In this document: positions 5,947 to 19,468 of the stretch, one piece after another | Position numbering within the stretch: position 1 is the stretch's first letter | How the letters are laid out: each line of letters starts with the position of its first letter | Source: a bacterium | GTDB taxonomy: Bacteria; RBG-13-61-14; DATKZS01 | DNA: 64,000 nt | NCBI GenBank assembly: GCA_963674965.2 | Contig: CAXXFL010000002.1 | Location: forward strand, 320,001-384,000 | Reading direction: 5' to 3' | The notes under the pieces: model-generated | Seen by the model: the letters and a program-made list of their open reading frames with translations, nothing else | The model's database searches: none | Told to the model about the DNA's origin: nothing | Made by a program: the position numbers and the translations under genes

Positions 5947-6963
5947 TCAGTCGGCGGCGCAGCGGAACCCCAAGCTGCGGCTCCTGCTGATCGGATTATA
6001 ATAGTGCCGGAACGACACGCGGGTGTTTATCAAATTGCCGTACCAGTAGCCGCCGCGCACCACGCGGGCCGCTCCCGTCGAGGGGCCGGGAGGGTCGTTG
6101 ACGATATCGTTGTCAACGCAGTACTGGTAGTAAGCGTCCGAATACCACTCGGCCGTCCACTCGAAAACGTTTCCCGTCATGTCGTAAAGACCATAGCCGT
6201 TAGGCCGATAGCTCTCCACCCGGTGAGTGTCGTTTTCCAAACCGTTGAAATCCCAGCAATAGCCCGCTGAAGTCAATCTTCCGTAACAGGCATCGGAACA
6301 TATCAGCAGGTTTCCGTGAGGATACCTGTAGCCATCCAGTCCTCCCCTGCCGGCGTACTCCCATTCAGCCTCCGTGGGAAGCCTTTTTTCGGCCCAGGCG
6401 CAGTAAGCCGCGGCCTGGTACCAGTTCACGAAAAGAACGGGAAAATCATCATAGTCGGGATTGCCGTAATAGTCGGTCCGTGTCCAACTGCCCAACGAGT
6501 TGGGCAGAGTGCACTCGCCGTCATTTACACAAGCGGCGTACTCGGCGTTAGTCGCCTCGTGTTTATCCATATAAAAATCGTAGGTGATGCAAACGCTATG
6601 CACCGGCAGTTCATCCGCTATACCTTCATTGAAGTGGTCCCCCATGTCAAAACAGCCTGAAGGGACCAACGCCATGTTATCGAGAGCGCACTCTCTGGCC
6701 TCATCAATCTCCCCGTATCCATCGTCTCCGGGACATTGGTTGTCATGGCCGTCGCAAAGTTCCCTGGCCCCGGGGTATACCGCCGAGTCGCCGTCGTCAC
6801 AGTCCACCGAGGTTCCGCATCCCCGCAGGTTGTAAAAACCGTCACCGTCGGCGTCTGAACATTCCTTTCCACAATCGCATTTGCAATCATAAGGACCCGT
6901 TTCGCATCCAACGGCAAGGAGTAAGGATAAAAAAAGAATGGCGATGAATATTGTCTTTTTCAA
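5947..6963 (-). CDS. Lipoprotein with a Cys/Asp-rich motif and an FGE-sulfatase (C-type lectin fold) domain
   Basis: LAVGC lipobox; [55 protein letters not shown]...GFRCA. Confidence 0.9.
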   Translation of the reverse strand: MKKTIFIAILFLSLLLAVGCETGPYDCKCDCGKECSDADGDGFYNLRGCGTSVDCDDGDSAVYPGARELCDGHDNQCPGDDGYGEIDEARECALDNMALVPSGCFDMGDHFNEGIADELPVHSVCITYDFYMDKHEATNAEYAACVNDGECTLPNSLGSWTRTDYYGNPDYDDFPVLFVNWYQAAAYCAWAEKRLPTEAEWEYAGRGGLDGYRYPHGNLLICSDACYGRLTSAGYCWDFNGLENDTHRVESYRPNGYGLYDMTGNVFEWTAEWYSDAYYQYCVDNDIVNDPPGPSTGAARVVRGGYWYGNLINTRVSFRHYYNPISRSRSLGFRCAAD

Positions 6964-14033: not shown

Positions 14034-14938
14034 TCAGCCGGACGTGATCATGGCCACCAGGCCGCCGCCGGGTCGCATGGCGGCCTCGATCTTTCCGTCC
14101 GAATCGAGCTCGATCTCTTGGCGCCTGAACGCCGCGGGGTTGTCCATTTCGTCGGACAGGACCACGGCGTGGCCGGGACCGTCCAGGAAGTCGGTCTCGA
14201 TGGTTATGTCCCGCCGTCCGCTTCCGTTCAGCACGCCAACGTACCACACGTCTCCCTTGCGCCGGGCAAAGGCCGCCAGTTCTCTTATCTGGCTCTGAGG
14301 GAGGACTATGGTCTCGTCCCAGGTGGCGGGAAGCTTTTTCATGATCTCGATGGCGGGAGCGGCCGGCGGGTTTTCAAGGTACATCTCCGGCTTGTCCGCG
14401 TAGTGGGTGACCGATGAGAAAAGCGCTATGGGCAGGGCCAGTTGATGGGCGTAGCTGGTCTTGCCGAGCTTTTTGGGATTGAAGGTCACGGGCGTGTAGT
14501 CGGCATGTCCGGCCAGGAGCCTGGTAAAGGGCAGTCCGCAGTTGTGCTCGGGGGTCAGGGGCGTGAGACTGAACTTGTTGTACTCGAGGCCCCTTATCCC
14601 CTCCCGGGTCATCTCGTTCGGATATGTCCTGGACTCGCCCGCCGGCTTGTTGGCGCCGTGGAAGTTGATCATCAGCTTGTGGCGAGCCCCGTCAATCAGC
14701 GCCTTCTCGTGGAACTCGAGTTTCTTGTGGCTCTCGCTGTCCATGAAGTCGATCTTAACCCCCACGGCCCCGGTTTGCTTGACGTTGGCGAAATAATAGT
14801 TTCGCCGCTCGTCGTCCAGGATCATCTGGTGGGCCTTCCACACCCACACGTCCACGCCCTTTGTCTTGGCGTAATCCACCAGTTCCGCCATCACGGCCCA
14901 CTTGTCCTTGCCCAGGCCGCCCCATCGCTCCCATCCGC
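14034..14938 (-). pseudogene. Glycoside hydrolase family 97, C-terminal half only
   Basis: GW..W, GVKIDF, INFHG..KP.G..RTYPN..TREGIRGLE, PFTR.LAG.ADYTP, P.TWDET; the 5' half is missing beyond the REPIN at 14939. Confidence 0.85.
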
Positions 14939-15065
14939 GGGTGGCGCGGATAGCTCGCCTATCCGCGCGGCGCAAGCCGTTGGATTGATCTGTACGCGCC
15001 CGGCGGGCCGCCGCTCCCTTTCCCACGCCTTCGGCGCCCAGATAGCGAAGCTATCCGGGCCACCC
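14939..15065. repeat. 127-bp F3 REPIN
   Basis: GGGTGGC...GCCACCC ends; near-identical to 15379-15505. Confidence 0.9.
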
Positions 15066-15378
15066 CGCGCCCAAAGGCCCAGCCAAGCCCAAGTCCCTTT
15101 AAACTTCCTCGTTCTCATGGCGATCTCCTTTGCTCTTTAAAGTCAGTCCGCCGCGCGGCGCGTAGAACGCATAGCTCGCCTATGCGTGGCGCCCGTTTTG
15201 TCAATTTCCCAGCATAACGGCAGGAAAGCGGCTACCCCCATTCTTGGTACCACGCGACCTGCTCGCTATGCTCGCACACATAGGCGAGCTATGTGCGTAC
15301 ACCTTATCAGTCCGCCGCGCAGCGGATACCGAGGAGGCTTCCCCTGGTTTCCGGCGCGGAATTGTACCGCTTGGCCGC
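15066..15378 (-). pseudogene. Fragment paralogous to 18375-18685 (3' end of an FGE gene, REP spacer, first 17 codons of a target gene)
   Basis: Encodes ...AAKRYNSAPETRGSLLGIRCAAD* and [17 protein letters not shown]. Confidence 0.85.
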
Positions 15379-15505
15379 GGGTGGCGCGGATCGCTCGCCT
15401 ATCCGCGCGGCGCAAGCCGTTGGATTGATCTGTACGCGCCCGGCGGGCCGTCGCCCCCTTTCCCACGCCTTCGGCGCCCAGATAGCGGAGCTATCCGGGC
15501 CACCC
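15379..15505. repeat. 127-bp F3 REPIN
   Basis: Direct repeat of 14939-15065. Confidence 0.9.
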
Positions 15506-15576
15506 CGCGAAACTCATGGCAAAACCTCTTTACACAGATCATAAGCTTTCTGAACCGCGGGAAGTTCCTTCTTCAT
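15506..15576 (-). pseudogene. avd: 5' stump of a DGR accessory variability determinant
   Basis: MKKELPAVQKAYDLCKEVLP*VSR resembles the Avd N-terminal helix (ELP..QK.YDL); lies directly after a target gene; internal TGA and truncation at the REPIN. Confidence 0.7.
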
Positions 15577-15591
15577 TTCAAAAATTTTTCC

Positions 15592-15658
15592 GATGGGGGC
15601 TTACGCCCCCATCAAAGGGTAAAAGGGATAAAGAATCAAAGTGTAATCAGTCCCCAGC
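15592..15658 (-). other. Candidate DGR IMH tract and target-recognition hairpin
   Basis: 43 bp (15616-15658) identical to 17054-17096; GATGGGGGC-GTAA-GCCCCCATC hairpin at 15592-15613 with no adjacent U run. Confidence 0.65.
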
Positions 15659-16987
15659 GCAACGAAATCCAAGGCTGTTGTACAGGAACGTCGGGAAGTA
15701 GGTGGTACGGTAAGCCACGCGCAAGTAGGCCGAAGGGTCGTACCAAAGGCCGCCGCGCAAGACGCGATACGTACCTGAAGCGGGACCGGGAGGGTCGTTG
15801 GTTGGACTTGAACTGTAATACGTTGATGAATACCAATCGTTCGTCCATTCATAGACGTTGCCCGTCATGTCGTAAAGACCGTAGCCGTTGGCCGCGTAAT
15901 ACTCAACCTCCGAGGTGTCGTTGTCCCAGGGATCGCCAGAGTTCCAGTAATTTGCATCAGTCCCGCTGATGCTGTCGCCCCAGGGATAGCGCTTTCCGGA
16001 AAGACCGCCGCGGGCAGCGTACTCCCACTCGGCCTCGGTGGGCAGTCTCTTGCCCGCCCAGGTGCAGTAAGCCGTGGCCTGGTTCCAGTCAACGTAGATA
16101 ACAGGGAAGTTGTCATAAGTGGGATTGCCGTAATAAGAGCCTCGGGAATAGCTTGAAGAATTACTCGGAGCCGTGCATCCCCCTCCGCTGACACAGGCCG
16201 CGTACTCAGCGTTGGTTACCTCGTGCACGTCCATGTAAAAGTCAGATGTAATGCAAACGTTATGCACCGGAAACTCATTGCTTTCTCCCTCACCGAACGC
16301 GTCGCCCATGTCGAAGCAACCGGAGGGAATCAGGGCCATGTTGGGGGGGGCGGGGCAGCTCTGGTAGTCGGCGAAGACCTGGAGATAGGCGGTGTAGTGG
16401 CCGGCGGCGACGCTGGTGAACACGAAACTCTGGGAGGCGACGCCGCCGGGTGGTATGCTTTCCTGCCAGGTGTTGGCGCAGCCCTCGGCCGAGCCCGCCG
16501 AGCTGGGGGAATCGTCGGTAATGCAGTAGCCCGAGTCGTTTATCGGCTGGGAGGTGTTGGGAGCGAGGATGAAGTCAACGCCCGGGTCGGTCCAGATATA
16601 GTCGGCCTCGGCCATGATCGCGTCGGGCCTGGTCGAGGAGTTGAACCGGGTGCGGACGTTGTACATGCACTCGTCCGAGTCGAGGTTGTGGAAAACGACC
16701 TCGCAGGTGGCCGCGTAGTTCCCCGCGTCCCACGAGCAGCCGGCCGGACCGTTCCGGACCTCGAGGGTGTGGCCGTTAAGGGCCCCCACCCAGGAGCGGC
16801 CCGGAGCGTCGCCGATCTCGAGCGTCTTGTGGTCGAGGTCAAGGCGAAGCTCGTACACCGCGGCCTCCACCTGGCCAACCGCCGTCTCCCCGGAAGGGTC
16901 GCCGCCCGGCGTCCCGCAACCGAAAGACAGCGCCATCGCCCAAAGGCCCAGCCAAGCCCAAGTCCCTTTAAACTTCTTCGTTCTCAT
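15647..16987 (-). CDS. FGE/CLec-fold lipoprotein, candidate DGR target A
   Basis: SFGC lipobox; FGE motifs; C-terminal [39 protein letters not shown]. Confidence 0.9.
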
Positions 16988-17084
16988 GGCGATCTCCTTT
17001 TCTCTTTAAAGTCAGTCCGCCGCGCGGAGTGTAGAAACCCTTTCATGGGAAATAGGGTAAAAGGGATAAAGAATCAAAGTGTAA

Positions 17085-18425
17085 TCAGTCCCCAGCACAA
17101 CGGAAGCCAATGAAGTTGTTCTGGACAGTAGGCGAAATGTAGCCCCGGTAAGCTACGCGCAGGCTGTACGAAACGTAGTACCAAAGGCCGCCGCGCAAAA
17201 CGCGAGACGTACCGTACGCGGGACCGGGAGGGTCGTTGGTTGGACTTGAACTGTAATACGTTATTGAATGCCAATCGTTCGTCCATTCCCAGACGTTGCC
17301 CGCCATGTCGTAAAGTCTGTAGCCGTTGGCAGCGTAATATTCAACCTCCGAGGTATCGTTGTCCCAGGGATCGCCCGAGTCCCGGTAATTGGCGTCCGTC
17401 CCACTTATGCTGTCGCCCCAGGGATACCTCTTGCCCGCCAGTCCGCCACGGGTAGCGTACTCCCACTCGGCCTCGGTGGGCAGCCTCTTGCCCGCCCAGG
17501 TGCAATAGGCCGTGGCCTGGTTCCAGTCAACATAGATAACAGGGAAGTTGTCATAAGTAGGATTGCCGTAATAAGAGCTCCGGGTATAACTGTTCGCACT
17601 GCCCGGCGCGGTGCAGCCGCCGCCACTCACGCAGGCCGCGTACTCCGCGTTGGTCACCTCGTGAACGTCCATGTAGAAGTTCGAGGTGATGCAAACGTTA
17701 TGCACTGGAAGCTCATTGCTTGTTATCTCGCCGAAGGCGTCGCCCATATCGAAGCATCCGGCGGGGATGAGGGCCATGTCCGGGGGGGCGGGGCAGCTCT
17801 GGTAGTCGGCGAAGACCTGGAGATAGGCTCTGTAGTGGCCGGAGGAGACGCTGGTGAACACGAAACTCTGGGAGGCGACGCCGCCGGGTGGGATGCTTTC
17901 CTGCCAGGTGTTGGCGCAGCCCTCGGCCGAGCCCGCCGAGCTGGGGGAATCGTCGGTAATGCAGTAGCCCGAGTCGTTTATCGGCTGGGAGGTGTTGGGC
18001 GCGAGGATGAAGTCAACGCCCGGGTCGGTCCAGATATAGTCGGCCTCGGCCATGATCGCGTCGGGCCTGGTCGAGAATTTGAACCGGGTGCGGACGTTGT
18101 ACATGCACTCGTCCGAGTCGAGGTTGTGGAAAACGACCTCGCAGGTGGCCGCGTAGTTCCCAGCGTCCCACGAGCAGCCGGCCGGACCGTTCCGGACCTC
18201 GAGGGTGTGGCCGTTAAGGGCCCCCACCCAGGAGCGGCCCGGAGCGTCGCCGATCTCGAGCGTCTTGTGGTCGAGGTCAAGGCGAAGCTCGTACACCGCG
18301 GCCTCCATCTGGCCAGCCGCCGTCTCCCCGGAAGGGCCGCCGCCCGGCGTCCCGCAACCGAAAGACAGCGCCACCGCCCAAAGGCCCAGCCAAGCCCAAG
18401 TCCCTTTAAACTTTTTCGTTCTCAT
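17085..18425 (-). CDS. FGE/CLec-fold lipoprotein, candidate DGR target B
   Basis: Same length as A (446 aa) and near-identical; C-terminal [39 protein letters not shown]. Confidence 0.9.
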   Translation of the reverse strand: MRTKKFKGTWAWLGLWAVALSFGCGTPGGGPSGETAAGQMEAAVYELRLDLDHKTLEIGDAPGRSWVGALNGHTLEVRNGPAGCSWDAGNYAATCEVVFHNLDSDECMYNVRTRFKFSTRPDAIMAEADYIWTDPGVDFILAPNTSQPINDSGYCITDDSPSSAGSAEGCANTWQESIPPGGVASQSFVFTSVSSGHYRAYLQVFADYQSCPAPPDMALIPAGCFDMGDAFGEITSNELPVHNVCITSNFYMDVHEVTNAEYAACVSGGGCTAPGSANSYTRSSYYGNPTYDNFPVIYVDWNQATAYCTWAGKRLPTEAEWEYATRGGLAGKRYPWGDSISGTDANYRDSGDPWDNDTSEVEYYAANGYRLYDMAGNVWEWTNDWHSITYYSSSPTNDPPGPAYGTSRVLRGGLWYYVSYSLRVAYRGYISPTVQNNFIGFRCAGD

Positions 18426-18448
18426 GGTGATCTCCTTTTCTCTAAAAA

Positions 18449-18627
18449 GTCAGTCCGCCGCGCGGCGCGTAGAACGCATAGCTCGCCTATGCGTGGCGCC
18501 CGTTTTGTCAATTTCCAAGCATAACGGCAGGAAAGCGGCTACCCCCATTCTTGGTACCACGCGACCTGCTCGCTATGCTCGCACACATAGGCGAGCTATG
18601 TGCGTACACCTTGTCAGTCCGCCGCGC
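18449..18627. repeat. REP doublet (F3-related) flanked by a 15-bp direct repeat
   Basis: ACGCATAGCTCGCCTATGCGT and GCACATAGGCGAGCTATGTGC hairpins; GTCAGTCCGCCGCGC at 18449 and 18613; copy at ~15142-15321. Confidence 0.75.
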
Positions 18628-19468
18628 AGCGGATACCGAGGAGACTTCCCCTGGTTTCCGGCGCGGCATTGTACCGCTTGGCCGCCCGAAGGCTCATGGC
18701 GCTCTGGCCGAAGCTTCCTCCTCGAAGCGCCTTTGCCGCTCCGGAGGCGGGTCCGGCCGGGTCGTCCCCAGGGCTCGAAGCGTAATAGTCCGGGCCATAC
18801 CAGTCGTTGGTCCATTCCCAGACGTTGCCCGCCACGTCGTAAAGTCCGTAGCCGTTGGGTGGGAAGTATCCGGCCGGGGAGGTGTCGTTGTCCCAGGGGT
18901 CTCCCGAGTCGAAATAATTGGCCTCCTGGCCCGTGACCGTGTCCCCATTCATAAAGCGCCCGCCCGAGAGCCCGCCCCTGGCCGCGTATTCCCATTCCGC
19001 CTCGGTGGGAAGCCGCTTGCCCCTCCACTCGCAATAGGCCCTGGCCTGGTACCAATCGACGTAGACGACCGGGAAGTCTTTATAGGCGGGGTCCTCGTAG
19101 TAGGAAACGCGGGAAAAGCTGCTGGAAAAGGCCGGCGCCGAGCATGCCCCGGCGGCCACGCAGTCCGCGTATTCGGCGTTGGTCGTCTCGCGAGCGTCCA
19201 TCAGGAAGGAGCCGAGACAGACCTTGTGCACGGGCAGCTCGTCCGCCTCTCCTTCCAGGAAAAAATCACCCATCTCGAAACAACCATCGGGTATTGGGGA
19301 CATGTCCGCCCGAGCGGCCTCTTCGGCGTAACCCGCCTCGTCGCCGCCGCATCCAGGGGCCGAACAGAGGAACAGCATGAAGGCAACAATAAATAGAAGC
19401 CCACGCGGGAAGCGCGGCCGGTGATTAATCGCGCCGGAGTTTATTCGGCTCTTTAGAAAAATGTCCAC
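18614..19468 (-). CDS. FGE/CLec-fold lipoprotein C (short form)
   Basis: Hydrophobic leader ending [41 protein letters not shown]; start uncertain. Confidence 0.85.
   Translation of the reverse strand: MDIFLKSRINSGAINHRPRFPRGLLFIVAFMLFLCSAPGCGGDEAGYAEEAARADMSPIPDGCFEMGDFFLEGEADELPVHKVCLGSFLMDARETTNAEYADCVAAGACSAPAFSSSFSRVSYYEDPAYKDFPVVYVDWYQARAYCEWRGKRLPTEAEWEYAARGGLSGGRFMNGDTVTGQEANYFDSGDPWDNDTSPAGYFPPNGYGLYDVAGNVWEWTNDWYGPDYYASSPGDDPAGPASGAAKALRGGSFGQSAMSLRAAKRYNAAPETRGSLLGIRCAAD

Follow-up and report, generated by a model that had tools for sequence, protein, structure and literature searches.

Two tandem genes with a diversified C-terminus

The locus described here raises the question of how two neighboring genes can carry the mark of a DGR when neither a template nor an RT stands beside them. 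It lies in a window of 64,000 nt (positions 320,001-384,000 of contig CAXXFL010000002.1, assembly GCA_963674965.2); coordinates of the locus are given as window positions (Table 1), and the assembly that was searched comprises 6.5 Mb in 7 contigs and is 97.6% complete. An earlier note on this DNA had proposed that the two genes, A and B, are DGR targets which are either frozen or served in trans. Our answer, which we consider likely, is that the two genes belong to a multiplied and partly decayed DGR family as its satellite targets, with B written in trans from an intact cassette on another contig (C6) and A frozen.

Genes A and B have the same length and, as the earlier note had read them, a diversified C-terminus: between WY and GF, 13 of 23 codons encode different amino acids, and a re-reading of the codon alignment again gave 11 of these 13 with the third base kept. 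The identity of the 43-nt tract over the two stop codons is exact, with 12 nt in the gene and 31 nt beyond it. According to Pfam, the FGE-sulfatase domain (PF03781) spans residues 215-444 of 446 in both proteins, and PDB matches of gene B include FGE and Treponema TvpA (2y3c, E 1.2e-21; TvpA over residues 291-444), in line with the FGE/CLec type of target that had been suggested. The VR makes up the last 42 codons of each gene, at the C-terminal end of this domain.

The two genes share 402 of 447 aligned positions (stop counted), and their divergence is mosaic along the gene. Codons 1-213 have 97.8% nucleotide identity. Outside the VR, the FGE domain has 86.3% identity, and 52 of its 79 differences are at codon position 3 (45 synonymous vs 22 non-synonymous codons). 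Identity falls to 74.6% over the last 42 codons, where codon positions 1-2 account for 22 of 32 differences. At the N-terminus both proteins have a signal-like stretch, [17 protein letters not shown](V/M)ALSFGC, whose end (LSFGC, read by eye) we take to fit the lipobox pattern; A and B may thus be secreted or lipoprotein-like surface proteins. For the N-terminal domain that follows (about residues 25-212) we found no Pfam family and no usable match in the ESM Atlas. A single-sequence AlphaFold model had a mean pLDDT of 29 and was kept out of the fold search.

Table 1. Features of the A/B locus (window positions) and of the related elements on other contigs (contig:positions).
Feature	Position	Strand	Description
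Gene A	15647-16987	-	ORF, 446 aa; PF03781 at residues 215-444, E 7.3e-62
Gene B	17085-18425	-	ORF, 446 aa, tandem paralogue of gene A; PF03781 E 2.6e-60
VR-A	15647-15772	-	variable repeat of gene A, 126 nt
VR-B	17085-17210	-	variable repeat of gene B, 126 nt
43-nt tract (IMH region) past gene A	15616-15658	-	last part of the TR/VR homology and 31 nt of flank specific to VRs
43-nt tract (IMH region) past gene B	17054-17096	-	identical to the tract of gene A
GC-rich inverted repeat after VR-A	15592-15613	-	9-bp stem, GTAA loop
avd relic	15509-15576	-	68 nt; first 20 codons, in-frame stop, then homology stops at R repeat
R repeat, copy 2	15375-15509	.	135-nt palindromic, MITE-like; truncates the avd relic
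300-nt duplicate of 18375-18674	15068-15367	-	97% identical; between the two R copies
R repeat, copy 1	14935-15069	.	abuts a 5'-truncated GH97 gene
Gene C	18614-19468	-	284-aa FGE-domain paralogue upstream of gene B
C6 RT	C6:952327-953400		358-aa ORF
RVT_1 match in C6 RT	C6:952546-953193		
C6 TR	C6:952199-952324		126 nt
C2_270	C2:270486-270611		VR-like copy

Genomic neighborhood of the two genes

An IMH/hairpin had been noted at this locus. The hairpin is present after gene A, where none of 200 shuffles folds as well as the real sequence (z -3.05), but not after gene B, where 20 of 200 do (z -1.36). Gene A's hairpin is also found after the VRs of four further copies (C6cis, C6b, C2_268 and C2_270). 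A tandem-duplication breakpoint lies after the 43-nt tract of gene B, which explains why neither a hairpin nor an avd follows gene B. The Avd stump reported behind gene A is real: over its 68 nt it has 88% identity with the beginning of contig C6's intact avd, and its first 20 residues, up to the in-frame stop, match without a difference. By tblastn of the genome, avd relics occur only here and at C6b.

The R repeat that cuts off the avd relic is present in 23 copies of at least 110 nt across the genome and folds end to end. The 300-nt duplicate between R copies 1 and 2 comprises ~60 nt from the end of gene C, the intergenic/promoter region and the initial 51 nt of the lipoprotein gene, and is a rearrangement scar. 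In the GH97 gene next to R copy 1, the Pfam match begins only at profile position 77 of 275. Gene C itself is part of the paralogue cluster; BLAST of the TR against all contigs gave no match at its 3' end that would mark it as a target of the C6 TR.

An intact DGR cassette on contig C6

We found neither a TR nor a DGR RT within the 64-kb window; both are located elsewhere in the same genome. The earlier statement that the two are missing thus holds for the window but fails for the genome, and a TR-like copy beside an RT, which the earlier note had set as its test, is found on contig C6. The 6.5-Mb assembly contains one intact DGR, in the order target-avd-RT-TR. Its RT ORF has an RVT_1 match of 96.9 bits (cut-off 29.6) and is adjoined by a 114-aa Avd, which matches both PF22296 and NF033474 (98.3 bits, cut-off 80), and by a target of 437 aa with an FGE domain. 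In NCBIfam, which has no DGR-specific RT model, the best match of this RT is a group II RT below its cut-off; the RT contains VGNLTSQ, which we take to fit a DGR RT motif. The TR begins at the RT stop codon, has 41 adenines and 85 non-adenines, and is filled with AAC/AAT codons. BLAST of the TR against all contigs gave no second AAC-rich TR copy, and tblastn of the genome gave no second DGR RT and no avd besides the relics at C6b and gene A. The other two of three RVT_1 matches were rejected as DGR RTs, being halves of group II intron RTs.

The TR and the VRs cease to match at the stop codon. Over the ~31 nt beyond it, the six VR copies with the flank still in place resemble one another and not the sequence that follows the TR. 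Mutated adenines lie at TR positions 5-105 of 126, and the last 21 nt of TR/VR are unchanged in 7 of 8 copies (the exception is C7_109). The unchanged end and the VR-specific flank are as expected for a candidate IMH.

Mismatches between the template and its targets

We compared the C6 TR with eight VR-like copies, counting mismatches at the 41 adenine and the 85 non-adenine sites (Table 2).

Table 2. Mismatches of VR-like copies to the C6 TR.
Copy	Adenine sites (of 41)	Non-adenine sites (of 85)	Fisher p
C6cis	23	1	
C6b	25	0	
Gene B VR	23	0	2e-14
Gene A VR	24	10	8e-8
C2_270	26	9	
C2_268	22	7	
C7_109	31	9	
C4_80 (re-registered alignment)		19	

All or nearly all differences from the TR fall on adenines in gene B (23/23), C6cis (23/24) and C6b (25/25), and only part of them in gene A (24/34). 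For gene B the 450-nt flank is 76.9% identical to that of the cis target, and given this divergence the absence of any non-adenine mismatch among 85 sites of VR-B has a probability of about 2e-10. A VR that fits the template so exactly despite a ~77% flank points to gene B as a remote target written in trans. The element itself was active recently, since C6cis and C6b have a common tract of 1,120 nt whose 29 differences are all within the VR. Of the two fates that had been offered as alternatives, frozen or served in trans, both seem to apply, one to each gene: B agrees with the C6 TR at all 85 non-adenine sites and was served in trans, and A, whose VR misses at 10 of 85, is probably the frozen one.

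Gene A and a possible second template

The earlier note had cautioned that some synonymous differences do not fit a single template. These differences are real; set against the C6 TR, they turn out to be gene A's non-adenine mismatches. Six of the ten (positions 49, 75, 78, 84, 108 and 114) are in the same state in C2_270, and at position 77 neither copy has the TR base, nor do the two agree with each other. Between gene A and C2_270 there are differences at 26 of 41 adenine sites and at only 6 of 85 non-adenine sites. Two of gene A's ten mismatches also recur in C7_109 and C4_80, and at the C4 locus the states at 108 and 114 are joined directly to a diverged TR end and to sequence downstream of the TR (80.7% over 171 nt). 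As six of these non-A states are common to C2_270, and two of the six also to the collapsed cassette on C4, we infer that the VR of gene A was last written from a second, related template that has since been lost. No TR fitting such a template was found in the 7 contigs of the 97.6% complete assembly; it could still lie in an assembly gap or on an element that was not assembled. Gene A probably became frozen once its own cassette was gone, its avd(-RT-TR) having been lost at the 135-nt palindromic repeat with the associated rearrangement.

Population data and relatives

Three sequencing runs were found, two from one sample (shares 0.79 and 0.68) and a third from another study (share 0.06). They were examined as Logan contigs only, and as contigs drop rare variants these are uninformative on activity. 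The locus is present only in the contigs of the two runs from the one sample. In X3, one of these two, short exact contigs lie over VR-A (167 nt) and VR-B (165 nt), with a single exact version of each, and no variant inside either VR was seen among the contig rows listed. Clustered at 90% identity, the proteins of A/B and those of the C6 targets group only with copies from this genome and with none from other strains. Among metagenome contigs, the 80 loci kept of 84 relatives had no match upstream of residue 161, so that 0 of 80 cover the N-terminal domain. An RT match at E <= 1e-20 was present in 4 of 30 other genomes, none of the same genus, and the two family-level matches are fragments; no orthologous locus was found among these 30 genomes.

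Alternative explanations

That no retroelement is involved, and that the C-terminal differences reflect ordinary paralogue divergence, diversifying selection or gene conversion, is hardly credible. Gene conversion among copies is indeed visible in the mosaic genes (97.8% in the N-terminal half, 86% in the FGE domain), but when gene B is set against the non-coding repeat next to an RT, all 23 differences are at adenines (Fisher p 2e-14), and the AAC/AAT codons of the template, the Avd relic and the IMH/hairpin all speak for a DGR. A more serious reading, though still an improbable one, is that both genes are frozen and the window holds only fossils, B having been written once, recently, from the C6 TR, perhaps when the tandem duplication had not yet taken away its hairpin. 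The missing inverted repeat after the IMH region of gene B would fit this, as would the lack of variant contigs over VR-B among the rows listed for the runs holding the locus, except that such contigs cannot show absence. The 85 matching non-adenine sites of VR-B leave very little time since the last homing, the C6 TR has acted since the very recent duplication on C6, and a clear inverted repeat is reported for only 127 of the 372 DGRs surveyed by Wu et al. (2018, NAR 46:11).

Two further readings would keep gene A in service. It is quite unlikely that a second TR/RT outside the assembly (in a gap, on a plasmid or a phage) still serves it. The assembly leaves room for one (7 contigs, 97.6% complete), VR-A and C2_270 have common non-A states and differ mainly at adenine sites, and the IMH region and hairpin of VR-A are intact; against this, neither BLAST of all contigs for an AAC-rich copy nor tblastn for a second DGR RT or further avd returned anything, gene A's own avd is destroyed, and the 6 of 85 non-adenine differences between VR-A and C2_270 imply that neither was recently rewritten from a common template. 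Very unlikely, too, is service of gene A in trans by the C6 TR, with the ten non-adenine differences as non-canonical DGR errors or later point mutations. Wu et al. raise possible non-canonical mutagenesis for the non-A differences in one target of a comparable two-target DGR, a reading that, carried over, would have gene A still served. Its IMH flank is identical to that of gene B over 31 nt, it has the hairpin, and its adenine bias is strong (24/41 vs 10/85 sites). However, 6 of the 10 differences have the same base in C2_270, and two of them in C7_109 and C4_80, which makes them inherited rather than random; positions 108 and 114 lie beyond the last mutated adenine (105), where homing should restore the TR states; third codon positions account for 8 of the 10; and 10/85 (12%) equals the divergence between A and B in the adjacent non-VR domain (13.7%).

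A proposed model of a multiplied DGR family

We thus favor B as written in trans and A as frozen. By analogy with studied DGRs, the TR RNA would be reverse-transcribed with random bases opposite adenines, and the cDNA would then replace any VR that ends in a matching IMH. VR-B would last have been written in this way by the C6 TR, from another contig, which, if the two contigs are parts of a single replicon, means a distance of at least about 630 kb; such retrohoming may still be going on. VR-A would have been written from a different, related template that is no longer in the assembly. Gene A would once have had its own avd(-RT-TR), 68 nt of the avd being left and the remainder presumably lost at the palindromic repeat and its rearrangement.

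More tentatively, and with less confidence than the above, we can envisage a master-and-satellite life cycle in which cassettes are copied together with their targets, most copies lose avd-RT-TR, two template lineages coexist, and gene B is a captured orphan. The loss may have followed different routes: a cut at the palindromic repeat (gene A), a collapse between VR and TR (C4), and loss of the post-stop sequence to that repeat (C7). By flank similarity gene B is among the C-type paralogues, those with C at TR position 114, and the surviving master element would have taken it over with no need for the inverted repeat. A flank tree made as a test of this capture is star-like (0 of 6 inner branches supported), and a grouping of gene B and the C6 targets is not rejected (AU p 0.086). 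TR position 114 is T in 3 of 3 VRs that fit the surviving TR and C in 5 of 5 that do not, and the template lineages are perhaps told apart by such bases inside the IMH.

Against the favored reading, the VR of gene B is without the GC-rich inverted repeat of the other well-preserved VRs; the best-matching VR is the one with the poorer target site. The tandem genes with their identical IMH flanks offer a natural comparison, A having the hairpin but misfitting the TR, and B having no hairpin but a perfect fit. The pair could reveal which properties of a target site determine whether a remote DGR writes to it, and whether single IMH bases separate template lineages.

Comparison with known DGR systems

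What looked like a DGR without an engine turns out to be an arrangement already known, with remote targets that are served in trans and decayed copies of the cassette, and the relics show three different routes by which a cassette is lost. Remote targets, incomplete loci and action in trans have already been published for Treponema and Thiohalocapsa. In the account of Wu et al. (2018), the TvpA DGR of Treponema denticola has, as here, an FGE-type C-type-lectin fold in its target, a C-terminal VR, and several targets scattered over the chromosome, with one TR serving targets far from the RT. The Treponema cassette is of their HRDC-containing architecture C, whereas ours is avd-RT-TR (their B2) with no HRDC seen, and the N-terminal domain of A and B has no match.

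Thiohalocapsa PB-PSB1, as described by Doré et al. (2024, PNAS 121:e2316469121), likewise combines intact DGRs, incomplete loci and remote targets in one genome, with loci that are duplicated and broken by mobile elements and MITE-like repeats and one target that fits the TR yet is not diversified. Diversification was shown there by population metagenomes and long reads, whereas our data are one assembly and the contigs of one sample, and the targets reported are putative antigen sensors of conflict systems rather than secreted or lipoprotein-like FGE-domain proteins.

The DGR of Bordetella phage BPP-1 (mtd-avd-TR-brt), in the description of Wu et al. (2018), has the adenine-specific TR-VR differences, the Avd and the IMH differing from the post-TR sequence that we see here, and a GC-rich inverted repeat after the IMH like that of gene A and four other copies. 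In that source the GC inverted repeat is reported as necessary for efficient homing in Bordetella and Legionella, and a GC-rich one downstream of the IMH is counted in 127 of 372 surveyed DGRs; because so few have it, the inverted repeat is not a defining DGR feature. In contrast to BPP-1, the system described here is chromosomal and has many targets, its TR follows the RT, and its CLec domain is of the FGE type, not the Mtd type; it includes, in gene B, a target without the inverted repeat that nevertheless fits its TR perfectly.

Genes A and B: a mosaic tandem pair

Three FGE-domain paralogues, genes C, B and A, are arranged head to tail on one strand of the window (feature table). Compared by segment at the nucleotide level, A and B are tandem paralogues with mosaic divergence: codons 1-213 share 97.8% identity with few differences, the FGE domain outside the variable repeat (VR; the last 126 nt of each gene) shares 86.3%, with 52 of 79 differences at codon position 3 (45 synonymous vs 22 non-synonymous codons), and the last 42 codons share 74.6%, with 22 of 32 differences at codon positions 1-2. 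The codon counts made earlier from sequence alone were reproduced (between WY and GF lie 23 codons, of which 13 alter the amino acid, 11 of them with the third base kept), as was the exact match of the 43-nt tract across the two stop codons. Both genes are predicted to encode lipoproteins, from a reading of the N-terminus alone, and neither Pfam nor the Atlas has a match for their N-terminal domain, which covers roughly residues 25-212. Downstream of gene A, a GC hairpin with a 9-bp stem and a GTAA loop (z -3.05; 0 of 200 shuffles fold equally well) is followed by an ATG at 15576 that starts a 20-codon frame; both are missing from gene B because the tandem-duplication breakpoint sits 31 nt past its stop codon. 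In a fourth FGE-domain protein of the window, the N-terminus is lipobox-like and a metal-binding motif of MopE type is present; the 3' end of its gene has no match to the template repeat (TR) described below.

Locations of the features discussed (bare numbers are window positions; G000 is the source assembly, L007 an excerpt of its contig C4, L019 a metagenome contig)
Feature	Location	Strand	Description
Gene C	18614-19468	minus	284 aa, FGE-domain
Gene B	17085-18425	minus	446 aa, FGE-domain
Gene A	15647-16987	minus	446 aa, FGE-domain
Hairpin past gene A	15592-15613
Fourth FGE-domain gene	5947-6963	minus	338 aa
R copies	1791-1920, 2366-2500, 14935-15069, 15375-15509		palindromic repeat
Duplicate between R copies	15068-15367		300 nt, 97% identical to 18375-18674
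RVT_1 match, DGR RT	C6:952546-953193
TR	C6:952199-952324	minus	126 nt, AAC-rich, begins at RT stop codon
Group II intron RT	G000:C7:619101-619955		C-terminal half
Group II intron RT	G000:C4:400600-401247		N-terminal half
C6cis/C6b common tract	C6:953683-954802 vs ~1175100-1176200		1,120 nt
C2_268 and C2_270	G000:C2:268433-268753 + 270419-270739		tandem FGE paralogues with VRs
C4 paralogue and its 3' junction	L007:432-1754 plus about 100 nt past it (C4:80395-80743)		440 aa, FGE-domain
L019 locus	L019:2488-4469		403-aa FGE target

An intact DGR cassette in the same genome

The window spans C2:320001-384000 in an assembly of 6.5 Mb in 7 contigs (97.6% complete). A search of this assembly with the gene A 3' end found further copies; RVT_1 and the TR served as further queries. 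One of three RVT_1 matches, on contig C6, falls within a 358-aa RT ORF, immediately upstream of which lies a 114-aa Avd (NF033474, 98.3 bits with a cut-off of 80; also PF22296), preceded in turn by a 437-aa FGE-domain target. Adjoining the ORF is the TR-like copy that the earlier note had suggested seeking in the genome, and this repeat is the TR; of its 41 adenines, 36 fall at the first or second codon position in the VR frame, and the avd-RT-TR order corresponds to architecture B2 as described by Wu et al. 2018. The remaining two RVT_1 matches were rejected as DGR RTs, since each is one half of a group II intron RT, the C-terminal half on C7 and the N-terminal half on C4. BLAST with the TR found no second TR in the whole assembly, which likewise showed no second DGR RT and no further avd. 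TR position 24 (G000:C6:952301) is C, yet five of the eight VRs carry another base, G in three of them, T in one and A in one; since it varies like an adenine site, the TR may recently have changed from A to C.

Fit of the variable repeats to the template

The same BLAST search gave eight VR-like copies, every one at the 3' end of an FGE-domain gene, and their mismatches were split by TR base (mismatch table). Altered adenines range over TR positions 5-105, the final 21 nt are invariant in seven of the eight copies (the exception is C7_109, on contig C7), and the likeness ends directly past the stop codon, the behaviour expected for the homing site (IMH) and its TR counterpart (IMH*). The common tract of C6cis and C6b has 29 differences, all within the VR, which argues that at least two targets have undergone mutagenic homing after a very recent duplication or conversion, and that the C6 DGR has recently been active; the C6b locus keeps just the first 52 Avd residues.

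Mismatches of the VR copies to the TR
Copy	Adenine sites (of 41)	Non-adenine sites (of 85)
C6cis (cis target)	23	1
C6b (222 kb off on C6)	25	0
Gene B	23	0
Gene A	24	10
C2_270	26	9
C2_268	22	7
C7_109	31	9
C4_80 (re-registered alignment)		19

The mismatches of VR-B are biased to adenines (Fisher's test, p 2e-14). The 450 nt upstream are just 76.9% identical to the cis target, and given this flank identity the absence of mismatches at 85 sites has a p of about 2e-10. A perfect non-adenine fit despite a diverged flank argues that VR-B was overwritten from the C6 TR and did not merely co-evolve with it, and marks gene B as a remote target for the C6 DGR. A tree of the flanks gave no resolved branching, and a shift of gene B between template lineages cannot be read from it.

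Gene A and a probable second template

Eight of the 10 non-adenine mismatches of VR-A are at codon position 3, and they are the same synonymous differences that the earlier note had raised as a caveat. VR-A has the same base as C2_270 at six of the 10 (positions 49, 75, 78, 84, 108 and 114), and at position 77 both are unlike the TR with differing bases, as if their template had carried an adenine; the two VRs differ at 26 of 41 adenine sites and just 6 of 85 others. The 108 and 114 states also occur in C7_109 and C4_80, and the 114 state in C2_268. Homing from the C6 TR should have reset positions 108 and 114 to TR bases, as both are located on the 3' side of the last mutated adenine. The mismatch rate of VR-A (12%) matches the A-B divergence of the adjoining non-VR domain (13.7%). 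On the simplest reading, the last template to write gene A was a second, related one, and the gene has drifted since; most likely it is the frozen remnant of a second cassette.

On contig C4, the VR-like 3' end of an FGE-domain paralogue shows the gene A states at 108/114 and directly abuts a stretch that resembles the TR end and TR downstream sequence at 80.7% over 171 nt, with no avd or RT between the VR-like end and this diverged copy. We read this arrangement as a physical trace of such a second template; the junction looks like a DGR cassette collapsed through VR-by-TR recombination. The pair C2_268 and C2_270 shares its contig with the window; its members, separated by about 2 kb, both have the hairpin and lack avd, and with 7 and 9 non-adenine mismatches they do not fit the TR. 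On L019, a related target, whose VR shares 74% identity with the TR, is followed by small ORFs of 77 and 74 aa and then by a 104-nt stretch 92% identical to the last TR bases and TR downstream sequence; no avd or RT lies between target and stretch, and the locus appears to be another decapitated cassette, from a different organism.

Loss of the cassette of gene A

The Avd stump proposed in the earlier note is correct, since the frame 3' of gene A has 20 residues identical to the N-terminus of the C6 Avd (88% over 68 nt) before an in-frame stop, after which the homology ends. It ends at 15509, where a 135-nt palindromic repeat, R, starts. R folds end to end and is MITE-like; of 50 HSPs in the genome, 23 are copies of at least 110 nt. 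DGR relics adjoin it twice, at the avd stump and at the C7_109 target's stop codon (G000:C7 just below 109192), where a short piece after R was read as avd-like; an avd search did not recover this piece. Trapped between two R copies is a duplicate that runs from the gene C end through the intergenic region into the predicted lipoprotein gene, of which it has the first 51 nt. Past the R copy at 14935-15069, a GH97 gene lacks its 5' part, as its Pfam match begins at profile position 77 of 275. R at the avd break, the R-flanked duplicate and R at the C7_109 stop argue that the decapitation was a repeat-associated rearrangement.

The DGR-type pattern reported in A and B is confirmed, and the proposal of a target pair either frozen or served in trans is supported and sharpened, with B as the remote target and A, most likely, as the relic.

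Population data and relatives

The locus is present in two runs from one sample, stored as contigs, and one of them holds a single exact VR-A and a single exact VR-B at contig level. Neither the protein clusters nor the 30 relatives searched with the RT yielded another strain or orthologue carrying the A/B N-terminal domain, and none of 80 metagenome loci has this domain. The natural contrast between A and B could be used to dissect target-site requirements.

Comparison with known systems

Among the 372 DGRs surveyed by Wu et al. 2018, non-adjacent targets occur in 45 (73 in all) and targets >100 kb away in 10 (29 in all), and inverted repeats are reported in just 127 of 372; the Treponema DGR has seven non-adjacent targets, with TvpA an FGE-type CLec protein, and avd-TR-brt genes are described as functional in trans from a plasmid. 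For a Thiohalocapsa genome, Doré et al. 2024 describe intact DGRs together with incomplete loci and remote targets, loci duplicated and disrupted by transposons and MITE-like repeats, and one target that matches a TR yet shows no diversification; a perfect non-adenine fit is taken there as a sign of trans action. As far as these accounts go, the present locus has the same kind of arrangement as those of Thiohalocapsa and Treponema in another lineage, and with remote targets already documented, the A/B locus would be a further case.
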